A stretch of 64,000 nucleotides of DNA from an uncultured Dehalococcoidia bacterium (GTDB lineage Bacteria; Chloroflexota; Dehalococcoidia; Lucifugimonadales; UBA1123): NCBI GenBank assembly GCA_964640295.1, contig CAZXFX010000005.1, forward strand, positions 21,497 through 85,496, written 5' to 3'. Each line of letters starts with the position of its first letter. The stretch's first letter is position 1. A program made the translations under genes and the position numbers. Below, one piece after another: positions 3,119 through 64,000 of this stretch. The notes under the pieces are model-generated. The model was not told where the DNA came from. It worked only from the letters and a program-made list of their open reading frames with translations, and searched no databases.

Positions 3119-4207
3119 ATGTTCGAGAGTCTGCGGATACGAAACTACCGCGCTTTCAGCGACCTCGAAATAAGCGATCTGGCGCGGATAAACCTGATTG
3201 GCGGCAAGAACAACTCTGGCAAGACGAGCTTGCTGGAGGCGATATTTCTGCTTGCCAGCGGTGGAAACGCGAATGCGCTGATGAATGTGAACGTGATTCG
3301 TGAACTTGTCGCTGAGCCTGCGTCCACTCGGCAAGCGGCGGACGTACTTTGGAAGCCGATTTTTCACAATATGGATATGGGCGTTCCCATAAAAATCGAA
3401 GGACGCCATTCTGAACGCGGTTCGCTTTCTCTAAAGATTTCTGCGGAGCGAGCGTTGACCGCCTCGTTTCCCATTGAAAAATCGGCCATCAAGGGGCAGG
3501 ATGTGGCTTCTATGGATGATGTGGCCAGCGAGCGCGCTCTCAAAGTTCTATATTCCAACAACGGAGAAACGCGAGGTGGGGGGCATATAGTCCTGAAGGG
3601 ACGTGAGTACGAAGTAAAGCAAGACGATCTTGACGTTCCCTTGGCCCTGACTATTCTCAAGCCGAGAAGCGGATATCTGGAAGATGACGCTATACGATTG
3701 GGGAGATTGCGACAGCAGAAGCGTGGCGACCTTCTTCTGAACGCGCTTCGCATAATAGAGCCACGCTTGCAAAGTGTCGAGGATAATTCTGCGAGCGGCG
3801 CGCCTATGATATGGGGAGACGTTGGCCTGTCCGAGTTAGTTCCCCTGGCGGTCATGGGAGAGGGCATGACTAAACTGACGCGCCTAATTCTCGCCATAGC
3901 CAATTCGCCCGGAGGAGCGACGCTTGTGGATGAAGTGGAAAACGGGATTCACCACTCGGTCATGTCCAAAGTGTGGAAGGCGATAGCCGCCGCCGCCAAG
4001 CGGTTCGATACCCAGATATTCGCCACTACGCACAGCTATGAGTGTATTGAGAAGGCGCATGAGGGGCTTGGATCAGAGGGGTTCCTATTCCACAGGGTGA
4101 CGACTAGGAGCGTAGCCGATCATACGCCAATTACACCGGTCCGGTTCACTACTTATACACCTGATATGATCGAAACGGCTATGCGTCATTATATGGAGAT
4201 TCGTTAA
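3119..4207 (+). CDS. ABC/SMC-type AAA ATPase (AAA_15/AAA_21-like, OLD-family ATPase module)
   Basis: Walker A GGKNNSGKTS near the N-terminus, signature-like MGEGMTKLTRL, Walker B ATLVDEVENGIH and H-loop FATTHS. AGGAG RBS 7 nt upstream. Confidence 0.85.
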   Translation: MFESLRIRNYRAFSDLEISDLARINLIGGKNNSGKTSLLEAIFLLASGGNANALMNVNVIRELVAEPASTRQAADVLWKPIFHNMDMGVPIKIEGRHSERGSLSLKISAERALTASFPIEKSAIKGQDVASMDDVASERALKVLYSNNGETRGGGHIVLKGREYEVKQDDLDVPLALTILKPRSGYLEDDAIRLGRLRQQKRGDLLLNALRIIEPRLQSVEDNSASGAPMIWGDVGLSELVPLAVMGEGMTKLTRLILAIANSPGGATLVDEVENGIHHSVMSKVWKAIAAAAKRFDTQIFATTHSYECIEKAHEGLGSEGFLFHRVTTRSVADHTPITPVRFTTYTPDMIETAMRHYMEIR

Positions 4208-4209
4208 GA

Positions 4210-4821
4210 ATGCCTGTCCCCGCTCCAATCGTGTCAAATGTGCAGTTGCTAGTAGAAGGGAATGACCAGAGGAACTTCTTTGGAGCTCTTGCAAGGCACA
4301 TATCAATCGAAAGCATACAAATTCAGAATTTTGGAGGCGTAGATGAACTTAGAGGCTTTCTGGAAACACTGGCGGCCTCTGACGAGTTCAAGGATGGGGT
4401 ACAGAGCCTTGGCATTGTTCGAGACGCGGAAGAATCCGCTCGCTCGGCGTTCCAGAGCGTTCAGTCTTCGCTCAGAAATGCAGGATTGTTCGTTCCAGGG
4501 CGCCCCAGAGAGCGGGCGGGCGACTCGCCTGCGGTGAATGTACTGATATTGCCGGACGATGACAGGCAGGGAATGTTGGAAACACTATTGTGTGAAACTT
4601 TAGCGAACACCCCGATAAACGACTGCATTGACGACTTTCTCGATTGCGCCCGCGCGCTGCCGAACGCAGATATTCAACGACCGGATAAGTCGCGCGCCCA
4701 TGCCTATATCGCAACTCGGCCTGAACCGCAGTTCTCGGTCGGTTACGCGGCAATGAGGGATTACTGGGACCTTGACCATGACGCCCTGAGGAACGCCAGA
4801 CGCTTTCTTCTATCTCTGTGA
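4210..4821 (+). CDS. Toprim-like (DUF4435/DUF3226/DUF4276-like) small protein, partner of the ATPase
   Basis: Starts 2 nt after the ATPase stop. N-terminal LLVEGNDQRNFF (the VEG..D motif typical of OLD/AriB/RloB-type Toprim), then IVRDAEE and ILPDDDRQG acidic clusters. Domain call is from motif recall only. Confidence 0.6.
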   Translation: MPVPAPIVSNVQLLVEGNDQRNFFGALARHISIESIQIQNFGGVDELRGFLETLAASDEFKDGVQSLGIVRDAEESARSAFQSVQSSLRNAGLFVPGRPRERAGDSPAVNVLILPDDDRQGMLETLLCETLANTPINDCIDDFLDCARALPNADIQRPDKSRAHAYIATRPEPQFSVGYAAMRDYWDLDHDALRNARRFLLSL

Positions 4822-10439: not shown

Positions 10440-11380
10440 CAGGACAGCCTCACTCTGGGATTGAGAGCGCCGTAAGCAAGGTCGGCGGCAAGATTGCTGA
10501 AGGCGTAAACCGCGGCGATGATCATGGCGGTGGTCTGCAAGAGCCTTATGTCTCGCGCGTTGATCGCGGATATGAGCAGGCCGCCCATACCCGGATAGGC
10601 GAACAGGTTCTCGATGATTATGAGTCCGCCGAATAGCCAGCCCACGTTGTTGGCAATGACGGTAATAGTCGGCAGCAGCGCGTTTGGAAGGACGTGTCGC
10701 ACAACGACCGTTCGCATCGGCAAGCCCTTCAGTATTGCCGTGCGGACATAGTTGCTTCCCATTACGTCTATGACGTTGGCGCGCGCCATCCTGAATATGT
10801 ATGCGAACAGCGCGCCCGTGACTGTCAATATGGGCATTATGAGCACTTGCGGATTGCCGAGTATGGTCTCGCCGGGCATCATTATGCTGGACGAGGGCAG
10901 CCATCCGAGCGTGGTCGAGAGTACCAATACCAGCACCGCGCCGGTGACGAATTCTGGCAGGGAGATGGTCAACAGCCCTCCAAGCGTGAAGATTCGGTCC
11001 AGCGGCGTGTTTGAATTGGCGCCCACTATGACGCCCATTACAAGTCCCAGCGGAACAGCTATGAGAAATGCGCCGACGGCTAACAGAGCCGAATTGAACA
11101 GGCGTCCTCCGACGATGCCAGAGATAGGGGCCCCGTTCGCGGTTATGCCCAAGTCGCCTCGCGCCACGCCGCCAATCCATTCCAGATATCGGACGTGTGG
11201 CGGTTTGTCCAGTCCCAGTCGTTCGCGCAGCGCCTTGAGATTGTCCGGGGTGGCGCCTTGCCCCAGTATGATGGCGGCGGCGTCGCCCGGCACGAATTCG
11301 ACCAATGAGAATATGGCAATCGAGACCGCGAGCAGGGTCACTACTATGAGGGATAATCTGACTATGAGGAATCTTGCCAT
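10439..11380 (-). CDS. ABC peptide-type permease (DppB/OppB-like)
   Basis: 313 aa, multi-TM, beginning MARFLIVRLSLIVVTLLAVSIAIF, with a BPD-transport style core. Confidence 0.9.
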   Translation of the reverse strand: MARFLIVRLSLIVVTLLAVSIAIFSLVEFVPGDAAAIILGQGATPDNLKALRERLGLDKPPHVRYLEWIGGVARGDLGITANGAPISGIVGGRLFNSALLAVGAFLIAVPLGLVMGVIVGANSNTPLDRIFTLGGLLTISLPEFVTGAVLVLVLSTTLGWLPSSSIMMPGETILGNPQVLIMPILTVTGALFAYIFRMARANVIDVMGSNYVRTAILKGLPMRTVVVRHVLPNALLPTITVIANNVGWLFGGLIIIENLFAYPGMGGLLISAINARDIRLLQTTAMIIAAVYAFSNLAADLAYGALNPRVRLS

Positions 11381-11434
11381 ATTGTCTTAAGCGCTTTCGT
11401 CTCCAACGCCGAGTTTAGTCTGTCTGATACCGGA

Positions 11435-11476
11435 AAAAGAAGCGGCGAGAACGATTCATCCATCGCCGCTTCTTTT
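11435..11476 (-). terminator. Intercistronic hairpin/terminator between the binding-protein and permease genes
   Basis: 14-nt arms aaaagaagcggcga (11435-11448) / tcgccgcttctttt (11463-11476). On the minus strand the stem is followed by a T-run. Confidence 0.55.
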
Positions 11477-11488
11477 ACTTCGGAAGCC

Positions 11489-13240
11489 TTAGTTCTTGAC
11501 CCACATCTCTTCCATCAGGAAATGAGCGAGCGCGGAGTGCGCCTGAACGCCGCCGATATTCTCCCTGTGGGCGATTATGACCGGCGAGTAGGCCAGATAG
11601 AGAACGGGAACGTCCTCTATGAGGATCTCCTGCATTTCGCGGAAGTACTCTTTGCGTTCCTCGAAATCGGCTGAAGACGCGGCGAGGTCCAGCAACTCAT
11701 CCAGGCGTGGGTTGTTGTAGAACGATTCGTTCCAGACGGTTCCGCCTCTTAGCTGCACGTCAATAGCTGCGTTGGCGGGCCTGCCGCCCCAGTTGCTGGT
11801 CACGAACGGGCAGCACGGATCCATCCATTGCGCTTCCCAGTAAGGGCCTGCGTCGTGGGTCTCGACCTGCACGTTGATGCCGGCTTCGGCTACTGACTGC
11901 TGGAAGGCAAGCGCGGCTTCCTGCTGGAATCCGATGTCGGCCGTGTTCAGCACAATATCAATGCCGTCTGGGTATCCGGCGTCGGCGAGATACTGCTTGG
12001 CCTTGGCTATATCCTGCTCGATGATGGGCTGTTCGTCCCAGTAGTACTGGTCGTTGATGCCGACAGGGTGGTCGTTGGCGGGCGAGCCGCGCCCGAACTG
12101 AGCGGCTTGCACGATGAAGTCGCGGTCAACCGCGTATTGCATCGCCTTGCGCAGATTCTTGTCGGAGAATATCGGGTCGGGGAGTCCCTGGAACTTGGCC
12201 CAGTCATCTTCATTGCCCTGGAGGTGTGAATATGCGGTGTGCATATCTATTACCACAACGCCGGCGGAGGGAGTCTCTGCGATCCGAATGTCTGGATTGC
12301 CGGCGAGGGAACCCAGGAATGCGAGAGGCGGCGTGTAGGCCACATCTATCGCTCCTGTCTTGAGCGCCTCGATTCGCGTTAGCTGTTCAGGTATGTAGAA
12401 GAAGATGATCTGGTCCGAATAGGGTCTGCCCTCTCGCCAGTAGTCGGAATACTTGTGGAAGACTGTGCGCTCAGTGGGATTGTGTTCTCCAAGCGTGTAT
12501 GGGCCGGATCCGTGTTCTTCGTTGGTGAGAGCCTCGCCTTTGACGCCTTCGGGAACTATGCGCGCGTGATAGTCGGTCATGTCTCCGATTAAGAAGGCGT
12601 TAGGATTGCCCAGATTGAGGACGACAGTGTTGGCGTCCGGAGTGTCAATCGTGTCTATATACGAAATCTGGCCTTTGAGCGGCGAAGCGGAATCTTCGTC
12701 CCTGATGCGGTCCAGCGTGTACTTGACGTCCGCGGATGTAAGGGTATCGCCATTGTGGAATTTGATCCCCTCACGCACGTTAAAAGTGTACTGGGACAGG
12801 TCGTCAGTGGAAGACCATGACTCTACCGCCCACGGGGATACGTCCCCATTCCACCAGTACATCACGACGTTGTCGTAGGTAAGTTCGCCGTAGGGCGCCT
12901 GTCCTTGGGACAGTCCCGCCAGCATGGGGTCAAGGGTCCCCTGGTCTATTACGCCCAGTCTGATCGTTCCGCCGTAGGCGGGTTCGTCGCTTGGCATCGA
13001 AGGAACGGCGGTCACCATTACTTCAACTTCTTTTACAACTTCGACTTCTTTTTCGACCTCTTTGACTACCTCAACCTCTTTGACTACCTCTTTTTCGACT
13101 TCGACTTCTTTGACTACCTCGACCTCTTTAATTACCTCGACCACTTCGGGGTCTGAAGCGCAACCAATCGCCGCGACTGCAACCAATGACAGAATCGCGG
13201 CGATCAGGACAGACAATTTTATCTTCTCGCTAAATAGCAT
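11489..13240 (-). CDS. ABC substrate-binding lipoprotein, family 5 (peptide/nickel type) with repetitive linker
   Basis: Start chosen at ATG 13240 (MLFSEKIKLSVLIAAILSLVAVAAIGC, lipobox-like, GAGGAG RBS). The ORF-track start at 13333 adds 31 unlikely residues. The mature N-terminus is an EVVKEVEV repeat tract, followed by an SBP_bac_5-type body. Confidence 0.88.
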   Translation of the reverse strand: MLFSEKIKLSVLIAAILSLVAVAAIGCASDPEVVEVIKEVEVVKEVEVEKEVVKEVEVVKEVEKEVEVVKEVEVMVTAVPSMPSDEPAYGGTIRLGVIDQGTLDPMLAGLSQGQAPYGELTYDNVVMYWWNGDVSPWAVESWSSTDDLSQYTFNVREGIKFHNGDTLTSADVKYTLDRIRDEDSASPLKGQISYIDTIDTPDANTVVLNLGNPNAFLIGDMTDYHARIVPEGVKGEALTNEEHGSGPYTLGEHNPTERTVFHKYSDYWREGRPYSDQIIFFYIPEQLTRIEALKTGAIDVAYTPPLAFLGSLAGNPDIRIAETPSAGVVVIDMHTAYSHLQGNEDDWAKFQGLPDPIFSDKNLRKAMQYAVDRDFIVQAAQFGRGSPANDHPVGINDQYYWDEQPIIEQDIAKAKQYLADAGYPDGIDIVLNTADIGFQQEAALAFQQSVAEAGINVQVETHDAGPYWEAQWMDPCCPFVTSNWGGRPANAAIDVQLRGGTVWNESFYNNPRLDELLDLAASSADFEERKEYFREMQEILIEDVPVLYLAYSPVIIAHRENIGGVQAHSALAHFLMEEMWVKN

Positions 13241-13681: not shown

Positions 13682-14935
13682 CTAGCTTTCAGGCCAGCCG
13701 TCGGGGATTTCGCCAGCGGCGAGAGCGTCGTCTATCGCCGACTTGGCGTCGTCCGAGACCCACCCGCCCCAGAGGTCTGGGCTGTTGTTCAGCCACCAGA
13801 GAGCGGCGTCCTCGCTGGTCGCGCCTTCATTTTCGGAAAGCCACGCGGCGACGGACTTATATACGCCGATATTGAAGTCCCACGCTCTTAGCATTTGGAC
13901 GACGTCCGGGGCATCGGTCATGACCTCGGGATGCACCGCTATGAGTATAGTCGCGTCTTCGTAGGCGCATGCCTTGGTCGTGAACCAGCACTCATCGCTG
14001 TACGCCGGCTCATCCAGGCGAACCAGGTCCAGAACGAGAGCGGGGTCGTTGGTTCCCCACTGGTATCCGAGCCATGGCTCCTGGTTCTGATACGCCCCAT
14101 ACAGGTCTGCGTTGGCGGCGGCGCCGTCTCCTGGGTTGACCACGTGAACGTGTTCGGCCAGTCCGTAACCTTCAATCTGGGCGGCGTTCACGGTTTCGCA
14201 CGCCCAACCGATTACGCACGAGACCAGTCTCGCCTTCCCTCCGGTTTCCGCCGTCTCGAACAGCATCTTGTATTGATCGTCTTTCAGATCGTCTATGCTG
14301 TCCAGATCAGGATACTGTTCCTGCAGATAGGCGGGAATTACGAATGCGGACTGCCAGTCCTTTCCGAGGCTCTCGCCGACTGAGATCACTTCACCCATGG
14401 ACTGCGCTTCCGCCCACGCTTCGTCCTGGTTGGGCAGCCAGATTTCCATGGTTACGTGAGAGTCGCCGCGCCGCAGTCCTTGGAACAGGGGCAGAGTGGC
14501 GCCGAACACGACATCCGTCGGATAGCCGTAGCCCTCTTCGACGATGTACTGCGCGATGCGGTTCTGCACCTGCGCGCTCGTCCAGTTGAGGTCGCTGAAC
14601 ACGATGGTCTCTTTCGGCCCTTCCGGCGCCATTACTTCCACGACCTTCTCGATGACGACGGTCTCGCCGGGAACTTCCACTTCCTTGACGACCTGCTTCT
14701 CGACGATGACGGTTTCGCCGGGAACTTCCACTTCTTTAATGACTTCTTTTTCGACTACTACTTCTTTAACGATCTCGACAGGCTTTTCGACTTCCTGGAT
14801 CACCACCACTTCTTTTTCGATGATCTCCGGCTCCGAGGAGCAGGCGACGACGGCTGCCATCGCCAAAATTAGCGCCCCGAATAAGAGCATTGATTTCTTT
14901 GCGCTGAATCTCAGCATATTTCTATTTCCTTTCAT
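13682..14935 (-). CDS. proX: Glycine betaine/proline betaine-type ABC substrate-binding lipoprotein (OpuAC/ProX-like) with repetitive linker
   Basis: Signal peptide plus Cys (LILAMAAVVAC), then EKEVV/VPGETV repeats, then an OpuAC-like body (FSDLNWTSAQVQNRIAQYIVEEGYGYP). An alternative start at ATG 14917 has the better RBS (AAGGAA). Confidence 0.85.
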   Translation of the reverse strand: MKGNRNMLRFSAKKSMLLFGALILAMAAVVACSSEPEIIEKEVVVIQEVEKPVEIVKEVVVEKEVIKEVEVPGETVIVEKQVVKEVEVPGETVVIEKVVEVMAPEGPKETIVFSDLNWTSAQVQNRIAQYIVEEGYGYPTDVVFGATLPLFQGLRRGDSHVTMEIWLPNQDEAWAEAQSMGEVISVGESLGKDWQSAFVIPAYLQEQYPDLDSIDDLKDDQYKMLFETAETGGKARLVSCVIGWACETVNAAQIEGYGLAEHVHVVNPGDGAAANADLYGAYQNQEPWLGYQWGTNDPALVLDLVRLDEPAYSDECWFTTKACAYEDATILIAVHPEVMTDAPDVVQMLRAWDFNIGVYKSVAAWLSENEGATSEDAALWWLNNSPDLWGGWVSDDAKSAIDDALAAGEIPDGWPES

Positions 14936-15005
14936 CTAGCGTCTCTGATACTGCGTCTATTGTCCATTATTTAAGCTTCGATATTTTTATTGATCACGAT
15001 TGAGT

Positions 15006-16073
15006 TTAGCCTGCGCTTCTGAGCGATTCCTGGCGACCCCGCGCGACCGACTGAGTCAGCCGGTCTATGACTATGGCCAGAACGACTATGGCCAGGCCCG
15101 CTATCGCGCCGTTGCCCGGCTGGTTCTTTTGCAGGGCGCGCAGCACGTTGTCGCCGAGTCCGCCGGCCGCCACCATGCTGGCAATCGTCACCATCGCAAG
15201 CGCCATCATCGTGGTCTGGTTGATTCCCGCCATGATAGTCGGCATCGCCATGGGTATCTGCACCTTGGTGAGAAGCTGATATGGCGTCGTCCCGAACGAG
15301 CGAGCCGCTTCCACCGCTTCCGCCGAGACCTGCCTGATGCCCAGATTGGTCAGGCGTATGACGGGCGGAACGGCGTAGATTATGGTGGCGAATATCCCCG
15401 CCGGCTTGCCGAGTCCAAAGAACAGTATGCCCGGCAGAAGATATACGAAACTGGGCATAGTCTGCATGGCGTCCAGTATCGGGCGCATCAGATTGTCCAC
15501 TATGCGGCTTCGAGCTCCGATGACGCCCAGGGGAAGTCCCACCGCGACAGAAATCGCTACTGCCACCACCATGAGGGCTATCGTGTCTATCGTGTTTTCC
15601 CAGAGGTCCATGAACCCGACGTACAGAAGCGCGGCGACGGTGAACGCGAGCAACTGCCATCGTCCGACCGCGAACGCGAGTAGCGCGAGCGCGACGATTA
15701 CGGCGGGCCAAGGCAGCCATTTGAGAATGTTCTCTATCCAGACCAGCGCGTGAGTGACTGCGGCGCTGAGACCGTCGAACAGCCAACTGCCCTTGCGGGT
15801 AACCCAGTTGACGGCGTCGTCAATCGAATCGCCGGTTACTTCCCGCACCGTCCTGTCCAGCGTGACCACATTGCCGCTGGAAGTCTGGATTTCCGATGTG
15901 GACACGGTTGTGGGGAAGTCCATATTCGGACCCCACAGCGCCAGGCTTGCCGCCAGAACGACGATAAAGGCTCCCGCGCCCAGAAACCAGAAGTGGCGCG
16001 GCGAGATATTCAATCGCAATATGGCCTCTGCCGGAGATTCCGCCTTCTGCCGCGATTCTTCCAATCTGGCCAT
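15006..16073 (-). CDS. proW: Betaine-type ABC permease (ProW/OpuAB-like)
   Basis: 355 aa, multi-TM, with the typical EAARSFGTTPYQLLTKVQIPMAMPTIMAGINQ motif. Confidence 0.9.
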   Translation of the reverse strand: MARLEESRQKAESPAEAILRLNISPRHFWFLGAGAFIVVLAASLALWGPNMDFPTTVSTSEIQTSSGNVVTLDRTVREVTGDSIDDAVNWVTRKGSWLFDGLSAAVTHALVWIENILKWLPWPAVIVALALLAFAVGRWQLLAFTVAALLYVGFMDLWENTIDTIALMVVAVAISVAVGLPLGVIGARSRIVDNLMRPILDAMQTMPSFVYLLPGILFFGLGKPAGIFATIIYAVPPVIRLTNLGIRQVSAEAVEAARSFGTTPYQLLTKVQIPMAMPTIMAGINQTTMMALAMVTIASMVAAGGLGDNVLRALQKNQPGNGAIAGLAIVVLAIVIDRLTQSVARGRQESLRSAG

Positions 16074-58916: not shown

Positions 58917-59960
58917 ATGGAACGCCCCATTATGAAACCGATAGGAACGCCCGTCCAGGAACTCGACACGCCCGCGCTCGTCGTTGACCTGGACATACTC
59001 GAAACCAACATCGCCGACTGCCACGCTCACTTCCAGCTCTCAGATACCAAGATCCGCCCCCACATCCAGGCGCACCTCTCGCCCGCCATAGCCCACATGC
59101 AGATCCACGCCCAGGGAACGATGGGCGGCATAGCCGTCTCCACGCTTGGCCAGGCCGAGATATTCGCCCAGCGCGGCTTCCACGACATTCTCATCACCAA
59201 CCTCGCCGTCACTGCCCCCAAGATAGCCCGGGTCGCCGCGCTCTCAAAGAGAACAAACCTCACAGTCTGCGCCGACGACCCCGGAAGCGCTCTCCTCCTT
59301 GCCCATGACGTCGCGCTGGCCCTCTCTACCGTATCCGTCATGGTCGTCGCGCGCGACCAGGACGAATCAATCGGCGTAACCCCGCAGAACGTCGCCGACA
59401 CGGTCTCCATGATAAAAAGCGCGGTCCCCCTCAGATTCGCCGGATTCATCTCTTCCAGCGCCAGCGTTCTGCTGGAGGCGGCTTCCAACTACCCGAACGA
59501 CGAAATCGAAACCGTTCTCGCGCTGCCTGAAGGCGAGGGAATGCCCGACTCCACGTCCGGAATAACCCAGATAGTTACCGGCTCATACGCGCTCATGGAC
59601 GCCGCCAACCAGTCCGCGCTGCCCGATATGCGGCCCGCCGCCAACATACTCGCCACCGTAATGACACACCAGGAAGAAGGACTCGTCTGGCTCGACGCCG
59701 GCCAGAAAGCCACCAGCATAGACACCGGCCTCCCCCTCGTGGACGGCATCCCGGGCGCCTCCGTCAGCCGCATGAGCGCCGAACACGGCGGCATGGTCCT
59801 CGACGAGGGCGCGACTTGGGACGTGGACATCGGTACCAAAGTGCGGCTCATTCCTCACAACATCGCCAACACCGTCAACGTTTACGACTTCATACACGCC
59901 GTCCGCGACGGCAAACTGGAAGCCGTCTGGGAAGTCGCCGCCCGAGGTCGCTACGACTAG
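58917..59960 (+). CDS. D-Ser dehydratase / D-Thr aldolase-like (alanine-racemase-fold) protein lacking the PLP lysine
   Basis: LDTPALVVDLDILETNI... then IRPHIQAHLSPAIA, where family members have RPHxKxHK. Both lysines are replaced (Q, L). Confidence 0.8.
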   Translation: MERPIMKPIGTPVQELDTPALVVDLDILETNIADCHAHFQLSDTKIRPHIQAHLSPAIAHMQIHAQGTMGGIAVSTLGQAEIFAQRGFHDILITNLAVTAPKIARVAALSKRTNLTVCADDPGSALLLAHDVALALSTVSVMVVARDQDESIGVTPQNVADTVSMIKSAVPLRFAGFISSSASVLLEAASNYPNDEIETVLALPEGEGMPDSTSGITQIVTGSYALMDAANQSALPDMRPAANILATVMTHQEEGLVWLDAGQKATSIDTGLPLVDGIPGASVSRMSAEHGGMVLDEGATWDVDIGTKVRLIPHNIANTVNVYDFIHAVRDGKLEAVWEVAARGRYD

Positions 59961-60013
59961 CGCGCGCCGACCTCTCCACACACCCTGATCCAGACATGCA
60001 AGAGGTGATTCAC

Positions 60014-61114
60014 ATGACCGCCCCCAATCCAGCCATCGGAACCCCCATTTCCCAGCTCGACACCCCCGCGCTGCTCGTCGAACTCGACGCGCTCGAAAGC
60101 AACTTCGCCCACGTAGCCGCGCTCTACTCCGACTCCGTCTGCAAAATGCGCGAACACGCCAAGAACATCAAGACGCCCGCCATACTGCACAAGCAGATAG
60201 AGGCCGGCGGCACCGTCGGCGGAGTGTGCGCCGCCAAAGTGGCCGAAGCCGAAGTCATGGTCGAAGGCGGCATCAAGGACATCCTCATCACCAGCCAGGT
60301 CGTCACCCCCGACAAGATAGCGCGCGTCTGCTCGCTCTCCCGCGAGGCCGACACCAAAGTCGCCATAGACGACGAACGCAACCTACGCCTCATCTCCTCC
60401 ATATCCCAGACCGCCGACACCCAGGTTGGCGTCGTCATCGAAGTCAACACCTCCATGGACCGCGCCGGCATACGCCGAACCGAGCAGGGCATCAGCCTCG
60501 CCCGACTCGCCACCGAACTGCCCGGCGTAGATTTCCGAGGCGTGATGAGCCACCAGTCCATAAGCGGAGACCCCGACCGCGAAACCCGCTTCGCCGAGGG
60601 CCGACGCTGGATGCAGATGTGCGTTGACGTCGCCAACGCCATCCAGGACGCCGGCATCCCCGTCGAAATAGTCTCCACCGGCGAAACCTTCACCATAGAC
60701 GTAGCGCCCGAAATGCCCGAGGTAACCGAAGTGCAGGGCGGCACCTACGCCCTCATGAACACCACCAGCGCCTACATGGAAGACTTCCAGTTCGCCGCCA
60801 AGATACTCGCCACCGTCATCAGCCGCCCTTCCGACAACATCGCCATAGGCGACGTCGGCTACCGCGCGCTCGCAGCCCCCAACGGAGTCCTTCCCTCAGT
60901 CGAGGGCCACGACGACATCCGGGTGGACTCCCTCGCGCCCGACCACATCGTCCTCAAATCCCAAGGCCCCATGCCCCTCGACGTGCGCGACCAGTTCCTG
61001 CTCCTCAGCGCCCAGCAAGACATCCTCGTCAACCGCTGGGACCGCTTCATAGCCGTCCGAAACGCCCAAGTCGAAGCCGTCTGGCCCATACTGGCAAGAG
61101 GCTGCCACCACTGA
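60014..61114 (+). CDS. D-Ser dehydratase / D-Thr aldolase-like PLP enzyme
   Basis: LDTPALLVELDALESNF... then MREHAKNIKTPAIL (lysines retained). Start at ATG 60014 (AGAGGTGA RBS). The ORF-track start 59816 overlaps the previous gene. Confidence 0.85.
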   Translation: MTAPNPAIGTPISQLDTPALLVELDALESNFAHVAALYSDSVCKMREHAKNIKTPAILHKQIEAGGTVGGVCAAKVAEAEVMVEGGIKDILITSQVVTPDKIARVCSLSREADTKVAIDDERNLRLISSISQTADTQVGVVIEVNTSMDRAGIRRTEQGISLARLATELPGVDFRGVMSHQSISGDPDRETRFAEGRRWMQMCVDVANAIQDAGIPVEIVSTGETFTIDVAPEMPEVTEVQGGTYALMNTTSAYMEDFQFAAKILATVISRPSDNIAIGDVGYRALAAPNGVLPSVEGHDDIRVDSLAPDHIVLKSQGPMPLDVRDQFLLLSAQQDILVNRWDRFIAVRNAQVEAVWPILARGCHH

Positions 61115-61116
61115 CT
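61056..61116. repeat. Direct repeat copy 1 (3' end of the 60014-61114 gene including its stop)
   Basis: 60 of 61 positions identical to 62030-62090. Continues for 9 more nt (acgatagcc) at 61254-61262 after the inserted 129-nt element. Confidence 0.9.
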
Positions 61117-61245
61117 CAGGGACTTTCGATTATCTGAGATCCGTTCGTCCTGAGTTTGTCGAAGGACGCCTGCTGAATGGCGCCTGTTGAATGGCGCTGT
61201 CAGTCAGTTCGTAGGCATATTGTAGAATAACCGAAAGACCCTGAT
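61117..61245. mobile_element. 129-nt MITE-like insertion
   Basis: Terminal inverted repeats CAGGGACTTTCGATTAT (61117-) versus the reverse complement of ataaccgaaagaccctg (-61243), 15/17 matching. Flanked by 8-nt direct repeat cactgact (61109-61116 and 61246-61253). Interior has cgtcc..ggacg and a tandem tgaatggcgc x2. Confidence 0.65.
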
Positions 61246-61316
61246 CACTGACTACGATAGCCCATGCTAAAATATCCAGATAAAACTACCCAACAAAACC
61301 GATAGAGAGTCGCGCA

Positions 61317-61562
61317 ATGGTCAGCGTCACCATAAACGATCTGGACGAATCCTTAGAACAACGCCTTCGCATGAGGGCGGCGCAGAAAGGCGTCTCCGTC
61401 GAGCAAGAAGCGAGGAACATCCTGGCCGCCGCCCTGCGCGACCAACCCCCGCCCCATGCAGACCTCGCAAGCTCTATCCGCTCCAAATTCGCCCCCTTCG
61501 GCGGCGTCGAACTGGAGTTGCCCGCTCGAGACGCTATTCGTCCCACGCCTCACTTTGACTGA
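61317..61562 (+). CDS. vapB: RHH-type antitoxin (VapB/FitA-like)
   Basis: MVSVTINDLDESLEQRLRMRAAQKGVSVEQEARNILAAAL is a ribbon-helix-helix N-terminus. Immediately upstream of a PIN gene. Confidence 0.8.
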   Translation: MVSVTINDLDESLEQRLRMRAAQKGVSVEQEARNILAAALRDQPPPHADLASSIRSKFAPFGGVELELPARDAIRPTPHFD

Positions 61563-61572
61563 GACGCAAGAT

Positions 61573-62013
61573 ATGATAATACTTGACACGAACGTCGTCT
61601 CCGAACTGATGCTTCCCATTTCTGATCAGAACGTGGTTGAATGGGTTATCAGCCAAGACCCCATGACTCTCTATCTTTCAGTCATAACTGAGGCTGAATT
61701 GCGTTATGGCATTGAGATAATGCCTCCAGGACAACGACGCGAGGGACTCCACGCTGCAATGGAAGCCATGTTTCAAGAAGACTTTGCTGGACGCATTTTG
61801 CCTTTCGATAGGGCGTCCGCTCACTCCTATGCTGCGATTGCCGCGTCTCGACGATCATCAGGGCGTCCTATCAGCCACTCAGATTGTCAAATAGCCGCGA
61901 TTGCGAGTACGCACGACGCCTCAGTCGCTACCAGAGACGTAGCAGGCTTTGAAGGCTGCGAAGTCAATATCATCAACCCATGGACTGACGCAATGAAATT
62001 TCCCGAAACATAA
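61573..62013 (+). CDS. vapC: PIN-domain toxin (VapC/FitB-like)
   Basis: MIILDTNVVSEL..., SVITEAEL, and DCQIAAIA...ATRD acidic residues. The ORF-track start 61456 overlaps vapB. Confidence 0.88.
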   Translation: MIILDTNVVSELMLPISDQNVVEWVISQDPMTLYLSVITEAELRYGIEIMPPGQRREGLHAAMEAMFQEDFAGRILPFDRASAHSYAAIAASRRSSGRPISHSDCQIAAIASTHDASVATRDVAGFEGCEVNIINPWTDAMKFPET

Positions 62014-62029
62014 GTTCGCTTCACGGCAA

Positions 62030-62099
62030 TCCGAAACTCCCAAGTCGAAGCCGTCTGGCCCATACTGGCAAGAGGCTGCCACCACTGACTACGATAGCC
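62030..62099. repeat. Direct repeat copy 2 (uninterrupted 70-nt version)
   Basis: tccgaaactcccaagtcgaagccgtctggcccatactggcaagaggctgccaccactgactacgatagcc. Matches 61056-61116 plus 61254-61262. Confidence 0.9.
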
Positions 62100-62252
62100 T
62101 CGACCGCAGTGTGGGTATATTGACTGCTACTACCCGCAAATGATACAAACTCACGCAGGACTAGCGTATTCCGAAATATATGTGTAGCCAAAGCGGAACT
62201 CGTGTTGGCGAATGCAGTCTCTTTACGGTGGGCGTATTCAGGAGGATGATTC

Positions 62253-64000
62253 ATGGTATCCCAAGGTTCAGACAATATATACAGGACCATAATAGTCGGC
62301 GCGGGAAGCTCAGCCGCCAACTTCATTCCAGAGTTCTGTCGCTCTGAGTCCGAAAACGTCCGAGTCACATTCATAGACCACGATTTGGATCAAATAGATG
62401 ACCTCCGCAGGCAATTGTCAAGTGTCCTCGATGAGGACTCCCTTAATACAGTACATGTCAATAAGCCTGAAACTGCCAGGGCCAATTTCAGGTCCAAGGT
62501 TCAGGAACTTGGATTCTCATACGAAAGGATAAACTGGGATAGAGAGGTCGCCCCGGATACACCTCCTGTCATACGGATTTTGACCCACATACAGTGGGAT
62601 GAGATTAAGAGAGCTATTGACGATCATATCCAGAAAAATCTGGATGACACCCCTACTGCCGAAAATAGAATAGTCTACGTCTTTGGCGTAACAGGCATGA
62701 CCTCCAGCACCGTAGCCATGGAAGCTTCGAAATTGTACAGAAAGCGCCTGAAAGACTGGGCCAGAGAGCGCGCCTCCACCAGTAGCCAGGAAATCAGACA
62801 AATCGGACTTGCGCTTATGTCTCCCACTCCGACTCTTGGGATTAGCGCGTATAATATCGAGCAAGGCTACAAAATTTGCACGATGCTCTCTGAAACAGTC
62901 CCGGACGAATACGCAAGTCTAAAGCAAAGAGAAGCCTTCCCTTTCGACAATTTGTTCCTCATAGATGGAAGCGGATTCGGTGGTGAAGACCGGCAGGATC
63001 AGCGAGAATTCAGTAAATGGTCTGCCGAAACTCTTTCCATGTTGTTATATCCCAAAGGACAGGACAGACATGGAAGTATAGATACCAACGAAATATTGGG
63101 CGAGCTGAGAGGCTACCGTAGTATAGCTCTTGGTCGGGCAGGCTGGAACCCAGAAGAGATAATTGAGGTTCAAGACCAGGTAGTTCTTAACTCATTGGTT
63201 GAAATCGGTCTTGATTCAGGCCTTGCATCAGAAGATGTAAAAAGAGTTCTGAGACAGCTTAAGAGCGGCGATGAAGATGTTCGAAAACAACTAGAAGGAA
63301 TGATTGTTGCCCTTGATGATGAAGAGGACGCTAAAGGGGAGCTCGAAAAGTTCAATTCACGATGGTACCGTAGAGTGGGTGGGGGAAGGCTGGAGCGGGA
63401 GAATAGACTCAAAGAGGCTGTAGCTAATGCGGATAGCGTATTTGAAGGTTTGGAGAATATGGTGGAGGCTCGCGCTGATAAACTAGACAAGAAATTTAGA
63501 GGTCGCAGACTCAAGTTCCTGTGGAGTACCCCATCGCTCAGAGAGACCATTAGATTGGTGGAAAATAGAGGGCCTGGGAGTGTATTGACTAACTTTGAAT
63601 CTCTGGAGTCATCTGATCAGCAGCGTTTCAGAACGGATCGCGACAGTATGCTTATGCGTATGATAGATCCATCTACTGAACATGATACAAGAACGAAAAG
63701 CATTAAATCATGGGAAATGGGACCGTCTGATGGCAGACAGATGCTTGGATTCCCCACAGAAGATTTGCAGTATGAAATGATGGACAATAGAGATGACCCA
63801 GTAGAAGTAGCCGAATATGAACTGAGCGGGGATATGCTCTATTCATTGATGTTCTGGATTCCTGCGGATGGAAAGATTATGCCCAGATACTACCGTAACC
63901 AATCCAATCCTGAACGCAATCGCTTGCCTGAAGATAAAGACGCTTGGCCCGAATCTGTAGATTCAACCAGCGATGACGTAGATAAGATGCTGAGGCATGG
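62253..64000 (+). CDS. Large hypothetical protein, 3'-truncated by the window (at least 582 aa); possible degenerate tubulin/FtsZ-like N-domain
   Basis: Hand-translated codon by codon with no stop from ATG 62253 (AGGAGG RBS 7 nt upstream) to the window end. Absent from the ORF track, presumably because it has no stop. AT-rich. Motifs TIIVGAGSSAANF (aa 12-24), VTFIDHDLD, VYVFGVTGMTSSTV (aa 141-154) and FLIDGSGFGG (aa 235-244). Confidence 0.75.
   Translation, partial: MVSQGSDNIYRTIIVGAGSSAANFIPEFCRSESENVRVTFIDHDLDQIDDLRRQLSSVLDEDSLNTVHVNKPETARANFRSKVQELGFSYERINWDREVAPDTPPVIRILTHIQWDEIKRAIDDHIQKNLDDTPTAENRIVYVFGVTGMTSSTVAMEASKLYRKRLKDWARERASTSSQEIRQIGLALMSPTPTLGISAYNIEQGYKICTMLSETVPDEYASLKQREAFPFDNLFLIDGSGFGGEDRQDQREFSKWSAETLSMLLYPKGQDRHGSIDTNEILGELRGYRSIALGRAGWNPEEIIEVQDQVVLNSLVEIGLDSGLASEDVKRVLRQLKSGDEDVRKQLEGMIVALDDEEDAKGELEKFNSRWYRRVGGGRLERENRLKEAVANADSVFEGLENMVEARADKLDKKFRGRRLKFLWSTPSLRETIRLVENRGPGSVLTNFESLESSDQQRFRTDRDSMLMRMIDPSTEHDTRTKSIKSWEMGPSDGRQMLGFPTEDLQYEMMDNRDDPVEVAEYELSGDMLYSLMFWIPADGKIMPRYYRNQSNPERNRLPEDKDAWPESVDSTSDDVDKMLRH

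Follow-up and report, generated by a model that had tools for sequence, protein, structure and literature searches.

The window analysed in this work is a stretch of 64,000 nucleotides from an uncultured Dehalococcoidia bacterium, and at its 3' end it holds a gene that we call TubL (tubulin/FtsZ-like). The features found in and around this gene are the following:

61043..61116, + strand: direct repeat (family D1, 74 nt), copy 1, the authentic 3' end of a D-serine-dehydratase-like gene
61317..61562, + strand: vapB-type antitoxin (FitA-like RHH; Pfam PF22513, E 3.5e-14), a neighbour outside the system
61573..62013, + strand: vapC-type PIN toxin (Pfam PF01850, E 2.3e-12), a neighbour outside the system
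62017..62090, + strand: direct repeat, copy 2 (93% identical), which duplicates that gene end and forms the far boundary of the VapBC insertion
62120..62150, + strand: promoter-like element TTGACT-N15-TGATACAAAC, about 100 nt 5' of the start codon, recognised by conservation only
62240..62245, + strand: ribosome-binding site AGGAGG, 7 nt 5' of the ATG, by direct reading
62253..64000, + strand: TubL gene, codons 1-582 of 587, the first gene of the operon
62298..62321, + strand: T1-loop equivalent GAGSSAAN, residues 16-23, paired by hhalign with GlGGTG of the FtsZl1 family
62370..62384, + strand: S2/T2 equivalent FIDHD, residues 40-44, aligned with FtsZl1 F-l-x-(I/V)-D-(T/S)-(D/E)
62685..62711, + strand: degenerate T4 signature loop GVTGMTSST, residues 145-153, from the hhalign alignment to FtsZl1
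62940..62975, + strand: S6/T6 equivalent PFDNLFLIDGSG, residues 230-241, matching PFDxx(F/Y)L(V/I)D of FtsZl1 in the alignment
63072..63104, + strand: putative T7 loop and H8, GSIDTNEILGE, residues 274-284, from the model
63150..63665, + strand: long helical (coiled-coil-like) hairpin, residues 300-471, AlphaFold2 helices within the C-terminal domain
63693..63950, + strand: C-terminal beta-sheet region and tail motif, from the AlphaFold2 model, reached by the Foldseek alignments to FtsZ

An earlier note on this DNA had described an uninterrupted frame of 582 codons with a good ribosome-binding site, AT-rich relative to its neighbours and running off the window edge. In agreement with this, the translation is stop-free (62253-64000, + strand) and AGGAGG lies upstream; the ORF does leave the window, but barely, as the full-length protein (P0001, 587 aa, 100% identical to the window ORF) has only five codons beyond the edge. 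The ORF is missing from the ORF track because that list leaves out ORFs running past the end of the source. The start codon is fixed because all homologues begin MVSQG..., and GGGAGG and AGGGAGG are the equivalent ribosome-binding sites in L005 and L003. The TTGACT ... TGGTACAAAC element is also kept in the intergenic regions of these two loci, although a consensus promoter scan did not call it in the window because its second hexamer, TACAAA, lacks the final T. The G+C content of the gene is 47% compared with about 62% in the flanks (in 500-nt windows, 0.456-0.484 across the ORF and 0.60-0.65 over 59-61 kb), and its GC3 is 0.47 compared with 0.68-0.83 in the flanking genes. Furthermore, the motifs quoted in that note were all recovered in the translation with the same spacing: TIIVGAGSSAANF at residues 12-24, VRVTFIDHDLD at 36-46, RIVYVFGVTGMTSSTVAMEAS at 138-158, FDNLFLIDGSGFGG at 231-244 and the charged helical stretch at 326-366.

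The AlphaFold2 model of TubL has a pLDDT of 86 and a pTM of 0.86, while a first model made from seven close homologues reached a pLDDT of 44 and was left out of all fold searches. In a Foldseek search against the PDB, the top 28 matches were FtsZ or gamma-tubulin (E 7e-6 to 3e-4), FtsZ being the best of them (E 7e-6), with a TM of about 0.62 normalised to the FtsZ target. The alignments with FtsZ cover about 547 columns and extend into the C-terminal sheet, with an rmsd of 9-11 Å, and therefore the two domains do not superpose jointly. TubL has an FtsZ-type N-terminal nucleotide-binding fold, from S1-H1 through S6-H7, with the secondary-structure elements in the same order as in FtsZ. The topology of the model and the extent of the alignments point to an equivalent C-terminal domain, and hence to the two-domain tubulin/FtsZ fold. 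When the viral structure library was searched, a phage tubulin was the sole significant match (E 3.7e-5, TM 0.44), much weaker than the one to FtsZ. TubZ and PhuZ share with TubL a divergent prokaryotic tubulin fold but, unlike them, TubL has neither a plasmid nor a phage context, lacks partition-type partners and does not show the canonical GGGTG signature.

At the sequence level, TubL was compared with FtsZl1, a family found by searching for a GGGTG(S/T)G-like motif (PMC2875224; Makarova & Koonin 2010). The TubL family aligned by hhalign with a profile of 16 diverse FtsZl1 proteins, taken from the supplement of PMC2875224, over 234 columns from the T1 loop to H7, that is, over the nucleotide-binding core from S1 onwards (probability 94.2, P 1.1e-7). 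A reversed profile gave P 0.11, and the maximum scores were 18 in 40 column shuffles and 31.9 in 40 block shuffles compared with 59.8 for the real pair. Both TubL sub-clades matched FtsZl1 separately (P 5.5e-5 and 1.8e-6), and FtsZl1 against FtsZ gave P 1.5e-5 in the same set-up. With cyanobacterial FtsZl1 sequences of low diversity the match had been marginal (P 0.031), and only the diverse set made it decisive. A direct comparison of TubL with FtsZ (3-sequence alignment) was not significant (P 0.37-0.43); the link to FtsZ runs only transitively through FtsZl1 and through the modelled structure. The motifs in common with FtsZl1 are hhhhGxGxxG, FxxxD(T/H)D, xIR in T3, the proline of T5 and PFDxxxLxD in S6. 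Together with the Foldseek ranking, this alignment bears out the suggestion of the earlier note that the ORF is a degenerate tubulin/FtsZ protein related to PF13809 with most of the glycines replaced.

However, TubL was missed by the models that define its relatives. The comparison with Pfam Tubulin, FtsZ_C and Tubulin_2 (PF13809) that the note had proposed gave no match to TubL at E <= 10 and none to ten distant members at E <= 1, and a home-made FtsZl1 HMM matched no TubL-family protein, whereas genuine FtsZl1 relatives all have PF13809. To FtsZ itself, TubL likewise has no significant sequence or profile similarity. A search of Pfam, NCBIfam, PADLOC and the PDB sequences with the single TubL protein gave no genuine match, and a seven-sequence profile gave only coiled-coil noise in the PDB. 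A match to ATP synthase subunit b in the sequence libraries was rejected as a coiled-coil artefact.

In FtsZ and tubulin the glycine-rich T1, T3 and T4 loops hold the phosphates via backbone amides, and the site of the T4 loop is where the phosphates of GTP lie. In TubL these signatures are replaced: GGTG by GSSA in T1, GAGQIR by TPPVIR in T3 and GGTGSG by GMTSST in T4, the canonical GGGxG-type T1 and GGGTG(S/T)G T4 signatures being absent. The residues G148-M149-T150-S151-S152-T153, which hhalign aligns with G-G-T-G-S-G of FtsZl1, retain from that core a single glycine, the Thr and a single Ser, while in 25 out of 25 FtsZl1 sequences from the supplement the site still has GG or more. As three of the four T4 glycines and the T3 glycines are replaced, nucleotide binding may be lost or altered.

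Nearly all of the family-invariant residues lie in the equivalents of T1, T2, T4, T5, T6, H7 and T7, on strand ends and loops of the AlphaFold2 model. The invariant or near-invariant positions are G16, G18, H43, F144, T147, G148, T150, V154, E157, G185, P191, P193, G196, G205, F231, D238, W256, D277, E280 and G297; G16, G18, T147, G148, T150, F231 and D238 are invariant across the family, H43 nearly so, and D277 and E280 are invariant in 19 out of 19 members. These last two residues, at the beginning of the helix that comes after H7, could correspond to the acidic residues of the catalytic T7 'synergy' loop (NxDxxD in FtsZ, DxxE in alpha-tubulin) and thus to an acidic pair at the T7/H8 position. 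In the model the putative T7 loop sits between the helices 250-265 and 278-284, which are followed by a strand at 287-297, and the only local hhalign segment against FtsZ, which is not significant (P 0.37), covers this region and pairs D277 with the second Asp of NLDFAD.

A further difference from FtsZ is a helical hairpin of about 170 residues that interrupts the C-terminal domain, with modelled helices at 300-318, 326-335, 341-368, 379-422 and 453-471 and a tip near residues 369-378. FtsZl1 has a coiled-coil region (PMC2875224), and the helices of TubL likewise come after the core; unlike FtsZl1, some TubL members carry a transmembrane hairpin in the insert, since two hydrophobic transmembrane-like segments are found at the hairpin tip in six distant members. 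The C-terminal region has a beta-sheet (strands 481-490, 518-523 and 528-537) and a conserved tail motif, W-x-P-x-D-G-x-x-M-P-R-Y-Y-R ... L-P-x-x-K-D-A-W-P, in which W535, Y547, L558, P559, W565 and P566 are invariant and which FtsZl1 does not share.

The TubL family is very small, with 25 representatives among 1.84 billion proteins and members as little as 22-27% identical overall, and its genome matches all belong to Dehalococcoidia, in contrast to FtsZl1, which is found in most bacterial phyla and in archaea. These genome matches were obtained with a reduced alignment, as the full alignment was too divergent to yield patterns; the genome scan with the single TubL protein gave no match, and a homologue search with a 19-sequence alignment returned the close clade only. 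No family member was found in viral contigs, plasmids or phages. As in the case of FtsZl1, TubL coexists with canonical FtsZ, whose gene lies on the L006 contig together with a family member.

The earlier note had placed the partners of the ORF outside the window, and we did find them on contigs extending it. A homologous partner gene lies 3' of the TubL gene in 15 out of 16 loci, a conserved partner of its own that sets the family apart from FtsZl1. Its product (about 300 aa) is bitopic, with one N-terminal and one C-terminal hydrophobic segment, and presents no similarity to Pfam families or PDB sequences. In the close clade, of which L001 and L002 (100% identical to the window) are part, the partner gene is followed by genes for a TerY-like vWA protein and a Ser/Thr kinase with a transmembrane segment. 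Pfam VWA/VWA_2 matches the vWA proteins of L001 and L003, with the DxSxS site in LLVDVSLSM. The kinase (about 1000 aa, weak Pfam Pkinase matches) has a single transmembrane segment, an extracellular region (about 600 aa) in which Pro/Thr linkers abound and, by eye, a Cys/His motif (C-x5-H-x8-C-x2-C) after the kinase domain. In L003 there are, besides these, another three vWA genes, one for a PP2C phosphatase and one for a second kinase. PP2C_2 was found in L003 only (E 5.6e-53); the contigs of L001 and L002 end inside the kinase gene, and there is no PP2C 3' of the kinase in L005. Among the distant loci, kinase homologues adjoin the members in L012 and L013, and vWA genes that in L012, while no vWA or kinase gene lies next to those of L006, L007, L009 and L010, where only TubL and its partner are present; phosphorylation control is therefore not family-wide. 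An apparent kinase beside L010, L014 and L015 turned out to be a trypsin-like peptidase with pentapeptide repeats, matched through low-complexity similarity.

FtsZl1 operons typically contain vWA and protein-kinase genes together with many membrane proteins (PMC2875224), and Planctomycetes have FtsZ-like proteins with a fused kinase domain (PMC9871819). The same kinds of neighbours (vWA, Ser/Thr kinase and membrane proteins) surround TubL in the window's clade and in L012. Our preferred explanation, to which we give a probability of roughly 0.6 as a whole, including its mechanism, is that the ORF belongs to an undescribed and very rare branch of the tubulin/FtsZ superfamily whose closest described family is FtsZl1 (Pfam Tubulin_2), and that TubL heads, in the window's clade, a membrane-associated operon with the partner membrane protein, the vWA protein and the transmembrane kinase. 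TubL would be cytoplasmic and act at the membrane, anchored by its own transmembrane hairpin or, in the window's clade, by the short basic cytoplasmic tail of the partner or by the kinase. There it could self-assemble head to tail as other members of the superfamily do, by means of its conserved pocket and of D277/E280, the invariant pair at the putative T7/H8. In the window's lineage this assembly would be controlled by a vWA/kinase phospho-switch, with or without PP2C, and the large, fast-evolving extracellular region of the kinase might sense events outside the cell. The likeliest role is envelope surveillance or remodelling; a role in cell division is not favoured because canonical FtsZ coexists with a family member on the L006 contig.

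It is possible, but unlikely in our view, that the operon is instead an anti-phage or conflict system, in which a TerY-P-like sensor, the tubulin-like effector and the membrane protein would arrest or kill the infected cell. The molecular identity of TubL would be the same as in our preferred explanation and the biological role alone would differ. According to PMC11090510, which describes the work of Anantharaman et al. (2012) and Gao et al. (2020), TerY-P consists of a TerY-like vWA, PP2C and a Ser/Thr kinase, and such triads are stand-alone antiphage systems in the words of Gao et al. (2020) quoted in the same article. L003 resembles them in having small vWA proteins of about 225-245 aa with DxSxS, PP2C_2 and Ser/Thr kinases in one co-directional string, and the Cys/His motif noted by eye after the kinase domain is a further resemblance. 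Moreover, identity between genomes is only 44-67% for the operon genes but 84-92% for the genes that flank them, the codon usage of the operon is atypical (GC3 0.42-0.50 compared with 0.68-0.83), the gene content varies after the four-gene core, and the window, L003 and L009 have toxin-antitoxin pairs close by. However, in place of the OB fold or terminal zinc ribbon of TerY-P, the kinases have a transmembrane segment followed by a large extracellular region, PP2C is found only in L003, and the vWA/kinase module is subordinate to the TubL gene and its partner. Distant members have the two-gene core only. The PADLOC check suggested by the earlier note gave no model for TubL or its partner, nor for three out of four vWA proteins or the PP2C; the remaining vWA protein had a single weak, unrelated match (E 0.0044) and the kinases matched only generic kinase-domain models. 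In addition, the chromosomal position is fixed in five lineages, unlike that of a shuffling defence island, and no member of the family turned up in the phage, plasmid and viral collections searched.

We consider about equally unlikely that TubL is a pseudo-NTPase, a tubulin fold that neither binds or hydrolyses nucleotide nor polymerises and whose role towards the partner and the kinase would be that of a static scaffold or adaptor. The replacement of the phosphate-holding T1, T3 and T4 loops by GSSA, TPPVIR and GMTSST speaks in its favour, as does the fact that Makarova and Koonin doubted standard filament formation by FtsZl1 (PMC2875224). Against it, T147, G148, T150, G16, G18, H43, D238, D277 and E280 are invariant or nearly so among proteins with as little as 22-27% overall identity, and such conservation of the replaced loops themselves is what one would expect from a functional pocket and interface, and not from a decayed site.

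The earlier note had regarded the ORF as horizontally acquired at an integration hotspot next to VapBC; taken as a recent acquisition, this is an explanation that we find improbable. The low G+C and GC3 and the adjoining toxin-antitoxin cassette would agree with it. However, in five lineages (the window, L017, L005, L018 and L003) the TubL gene comes directly after one and the same D-serine-dehydratase-like gene, VapBC apart, with proteins that have diverged to 51-81% identity; the note had counted synteny among relatives as evidence against its own proposal, and such synteny exists in the close clade. The neighbouring pair fits the definition of VapBC, an RHH antitoxin followed by an adjacent PIN toxin, and is present in the window only, being missing from L003, L005, L017 and L018. 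It is the VapBC cassette that is the insertion and the newcomer, bounded by the 74-nt direct repeat that duplicates the end of the upstream gene, and beyond copy 2 the intergenic region has 163 nt compared with 175-195 nt in the relatives. Furthermore, no tRNA, integrase or Rfam/other RNA gene was found in the window. A recent acquisition is thus refuted. The operon cassette nevertheless has foreign codon usage and diverges several-fold faster than its flanks, and it is plausible that the clade's ancestor acquired it long ago or that alleles have been replaced, perhaps repeatedly, at this fixed position.

A still more doubtful idea is that phosphorylation replaces the nucleotide switch, with the kinase, and PP2C where it occurs, acting on the invariant Thr/Ser-rich T4 loop (T147-G-M-T150-S-S-T153) so that the extracellular signal, and not GTP hydrolysis, drives assembly at the membrane; it is mildly disfavoured because distant members keep the loop with no adjacent kinase. 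Finally, the Rossmann-like alternative of the earlier note, an NAD(P)/FAD enzyme with a GxGxxA dinucleotide-binding motif, is hardly tenable, since, although GAGSSA comes after the first beta-strand and Foldseek also matched short-chain dehydrogenases (rank 29 onwards, E 3e-4), these rank below the 28 FtsZ/tubulin matches, cover only 220-290 columns with a target-normalised TM of 0.32-0.39 (about 0.35, against 0.62 for FtsZ), no Pfam NAD/FAD family matches TubL, hhalign ties the whole N-terminal domain to FtsZl1, and most of the distant members have GGGxS at T1 and not GxGxxA.

To the best of our knowledge, the characterised proteins of the tubulin/FtsZ superfamily all use a glycine-rich GTP pocket and polymerise, and FtsZl1 is the most divergent relative described, of which we know no experimental study since 2010. 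The TubL family of Dehalococcoidia extends this branch, as the fold is retained and the pocket strongly conserved while most of the signature glycines are replaced, and it adds a membrane-directed helical insert and a fixed membrane partner. The family would have escaped any Pfam-based survey of the kind of the 2023 FtsZ/tubulin census. TubL is therefore a natural test of which tubulin features are required for nucleotide binding and assembly, and the four-gene module of tubulin-like protein, partner, vWA protein and transmembrane kinase offers a place to study the long-suspected link between FtsZl1 and vWA/kinase genes.

We assign TubL, the protein encoded by the stop-free frame of 582 codons at window 62253-64000 (+), to the tubulin/FtsZ superfamily with a probability of about 0.9. 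The ORF is essentially complete within the window; P0001, a full-length protein 100% identical to the window TubL, has 587 aa, and two short public contigs match the window over 1.9 kb with 100% identity and reach 2.7 kb beyond it. The gene is preceded by the following site, read directly from the DNA:

62240-62245 (+): ribosome-binding site AGGAGG, 7 nt before the tubL ATG

A TTGACT ... TG(A/G)TACAAAC element upstream of tubL is conserved in three genomes and was not called by a promoter consensus scan. The G+C content of tubL is 0.46-0.48 versus 0.60-0.65 upstream, and its GC3 is 0.47 versus 0.68-0.83 in seven flanking metabolic genes, so the gap reflects codon usage and not just amino-acid content.

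TubL had no match in Pfam, NCBIfam, PADLOC or PDB-sequence searches, and none of ten distant homologues had a meaningful match in Pfam. The family has very few members: homologues form 7 clusters among 5.8 billion proteins, an exhaustive profile search gave 25 representatives among 1.84 billion proteins, the seven matches among 185,579 species-representative genomes all come from Dehalococcoidia MAGs, and no member was found in the viral contigs, plasmids and phages searched. AlphaFold2 reached a pLDDT of 44 on 7 close homologues and gave a confident model on 19 sequences including distant members (mean pLDDT 86, pTM 0.86). When this model was compared with the PDB by Foldseek, ranks 1-28 were FtsZ and gamma-tubulin (E 7e-6 to 3e-4), with a TM of ~0.6 to FtsZ, normalised to FtsZ chains of ~300 residues, and alignments of ~547 columns running from residue ~10 to the C-terminal sheet. 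The rmsd to FtsZ/tubulin was 9-11 Å, which means that the two domains of TubL do not superpose jointly. Short-chain dehydrogenases appeared from rank 29 onward (TM 0.32-0.39), and phage tubulin was the sole significant match in a viral structure library. Furthermore, the secondary-structure elements follow the same order as in FtsZ.

Elements of the TubL AlphaFold2 model (residues)
S1 11-16, H1, S2 36-42, H2, S3 64-68, H3 104-123
S4 138-145, H4 149-172, S5 182-189, H5 201-215, S6 233-238
H7 250-265, loop, H8 278-284, S7 287-297, H9 300-318
Helical hairpin after H9, extending to residue 471
C-terminal part, 481-537: three further strands and two helices

According to the model, the hairpin would be a ~170-residue insertion inside the C-terminal domain, and the invariant D277 and E280 may be the counterparts of the catalytic T7/H8 acidic residues. 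The hhalign comparison of the family with FtsZ gave a single segment, spanning H7-T7-H8-S7, that was not significant (P 0.37).

FtsZ-like 1 (FtsZl1) was described by Makarova and Koonin (2010; PMC2875224) as an FtsZ-type core alignable only up to H5 and followed by a coiled-coil region, encoded in operons with vWA proteins, protein kinases and numerous membrane proteins. A 160-aa FtsZl1 seed rebuilt from the supplement of that paper retrieved only proteins labelled PF13809, and FtsZl1 is therefore Pfam Tubulin_2. The match of the TubL family to a low-diversity FtsZl1 alignment was marginal and had its centre at the T4 loop (P 0.031). When 16 diverse FtsZl1 N-terminal domains, transcribed from the same supplement, were used, hhalign aligned 234 columns from S1 to H7 with a probability of 94.2 and P 1.1e-7. 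The reversed profile gave P 0.11, and the best scores of 40 column shuffles and of 40 shuffles of 15-column blocks were 18.0 and 31.9, versus 59.8 with the real profile. The match was also found with the close clade (the window and its syntenic relatives) alone (P 5.5e-5) and with the distant members alone (P 1.8e-6); in the same set-up FtsZl1 matched FtsZ with P 1.5e-5, and the TubL family compared with FtsZ gave P 0.43. A plain FtsZl1 HMM missed every family member at E <= 10, and this accounts for the lack of Pfam matches. The structural intuition of the earlier note, that this could be a tubulin/FtsZ-like protein, was thus right on both the Foldseek ranking and the FtsZl1 match, and all the motifs that it quoted are found where it placed them in the tubL translation. 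The TubL family is a new family-level branch of the known, uncharacterised FtsZl1/Tubulin_2 kind.

Nucleotide-pocket loops aligned by hhalign (FtsZl1, then TubL)
T1: GxGGTG, GAGSSA
S2/T2: FxxxD(T/S)(D/E), FIDHD
T3: GAGQIRxxGR, TPPVIR
T4: GGTGSG, G148-M-T150-S-S-T153
H4: acidic D, E157
T5: P, P191
S6: PFDxx(F/Y)L(V/I)D, PFDNLFLID

TubL keeps just one of the four T4 glycines of FtsZl1, and it is possible, although we think it unlikely, that TubL is a non-polymerising pseudo-NTPase scaffold. Overall identity among family members is only 22-27%, and the invariant residues are G16, G18, H43, T147, G148, T150, V154, E157, G185, P191, P193, G196, G205, F231, D238, W256, D277, E280 and G297. Nearly all of them fall in the mapped loops despite the lost T4 glycines, a pattern easier to reconcile with a functional pocket and subunit interface than with decayed ones.

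A homologous partner gene, which encodes 280-318 aa and no known domain, follows tubL after 0-90 nt in 15 of 16 distinct loci. The partner protein has one hydrophobic segment near each terminus; between them lie ~230 residues that include two invariant cysteines and a GRPW motif, and a short basic tail follows the C-terminal segment. From this we predict a bitopic membrane protein that exposes most of its mass outside the cell. In six distant TubL family members, the tip of the helical insert contains two hydrophobic segments, so that in some lineages the TubL-like protein is itself predicted to be anchored in the membrane.

In the close clade, the partner is followed by a TerY-like vWA protein (223 aa, DxSxS site) and a Ser/Thr kinase. 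In two syntenic loci this kinase has ~1000 aa:

L003 13742-16750: ~1000-aa kinase
L005 10123-13140: ~1000-aa kinase

Both have a C-x5-H-x8-C-x2-C motif immediately after the kinase domain, one transmembrane segment and a long extracellular region, whose modules, without Pfam match, are separated by long Pro/Thr-rich linkers of (T/P) repeats. Further downstream, L003 encodes three additional vWA proteins, a PP2C_2 phosphatase (E 5.6e-53) and a second kinase, a string that resembles the TerY-P triad (as defined in PMC11090510). In the distant loci L012 and L013, family members likewise have kinase homologues next to them, in L012 together with vWA genes; these genes stand in other orientations, and their presence supports a functional link to the family. 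L012 (4808-16462) has its family member amid three kinase-like genes and at least one vWA gene on the opposite strand; two shorter vWA-like ORFs (14832-15344 and 15369-15632) resemble fragments of one disrupted gene. Three further loci (L006, L007 and L009) have the two-gene core of TubL and partner only. Tubulin_2 proteins fused to a kinase domain have been reported in Planctomycetes in a 2023 FtsZ/tubulin census (PMC9871819). A weak kinase match in L010, L014 and L015 was dropped, as it is a 745-aa trypsin-like peptidase with many pentapeptide repeats, encoded at 10855-13092 (-) on these three Dehalococcoidia chromosomes, directly after the partner gene and convergent to it.

The earlier note had also proposed that tubL was horizontally acquired at an integration hotspot next to VapBC, and as a recent event this does not hold. 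The upstream order of the window (SBP_bac_5, MR_MLE, TsaD, an unknown gene, an amidohydrolase and two D-serine-dehydratase-like genes) is kept in L003, L005, L017 and L018, where tubL lies 175-195 nt past the second dehydratase-like gene. VapBC is at this site in the window only, being missing from these four relatives:

61317-61562: vapB, FitA-like RHH antitoxin, GC3 0.70
61573-62013: vapC, PIN toxin, GC3 0.47

The VapBC cassette (61043-62090) has a copy of a 74-nt direct repeat at each end; this repeat, 93% identical between the copies, duplicates the 3' end of the upstream dehydratase-like gene, so the recent insertion is VapBC and not tubL. A 17-nt repeat, CACTGACTACGATAGCC, lies at 61246-61262, ~129 nt (61117-61245) past the stop codon of that gene, and again at 62083-62099, directly past the second copy of the 74-nt repeat, which points to a nested junction or a further small insertion at this site. 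Small toxin-antitoxin modules recur at differing points of the neighbourhood in different genomes: L003 has a DUF433 and DUF5615/PIN_10 pair inserted between MR_MLE and TsaD (3878-4554), and L009 a similar pair upstream of its family member (3132-4192). No tRNA, tmRNA or Rfam family reached the gathering threshold in the whole 64-kb window.

Among three genomes compared, identity is 83-92% in TsaD, the amidohydrolase and the second dehydratase-like gene versus 44-67% in the four operon genes. In the window as well as in L003, the four-gene core (TubL, partner, vWA protein and kinase) has a low GC3. Low GC3 and fast divergence fit an old, never-ameliorated acquisition, diversifying selection or allele replacement at a fixed locus. 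The two tandem paralogous Ala_racemase_N/D-ser_dehydrat genes (58917-61114) evolve at very different rates, with between-genome identities of 64-66% for the first versus 89-92% for the second. In L018 and L019, two long-read contigs of a single sample, several genes of the syntenic block and operon look split or shortened, among them a family fragment of 369 aa and a D-ser_dehydrat piece of 100 aa; these are probably assembly frameshift errors, not pseudogenes.

A canonical FtsZ gene (L006 20833-21927 (-); Pfam Tubulin and FtsZ_C, ~1e-105 to Staphylococcus and Bacillus FtsZ) lies ~9 kb from a family member on the same Dehalococcoidia contig, so the latter is no replacement for FtsZ there. Starting from the established fold, FtsZl1 homology, degenerate but conserved pocket, insert, operon structure and predicted membrane topology of the partners, TubL would be a cytoplasmic, membrane-tethered, self-assembling protein of tubulin fold that acts together with the extracytoplasmic partner. 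In the window lineage, it could be controlled by a vWA/kinase phospho-switch, with or without PP2C, responding to events outside the cell. The most likely role of this system would be envelope surveillance or remodelling. A dedicated anti-phage role of the operon is a serious rival, as is the pseudo-NTPase scaffold; we hold each to be unlikely, and both concern role or activity and leave the identity of TubL undisputed. TubL extends an existing family and opens no new category. The TubL family nevertheless adds a genuine and unusual branch to the tubulin superfamily, and what it implies about the features needed for nucleotide binding and assembly can be tested.
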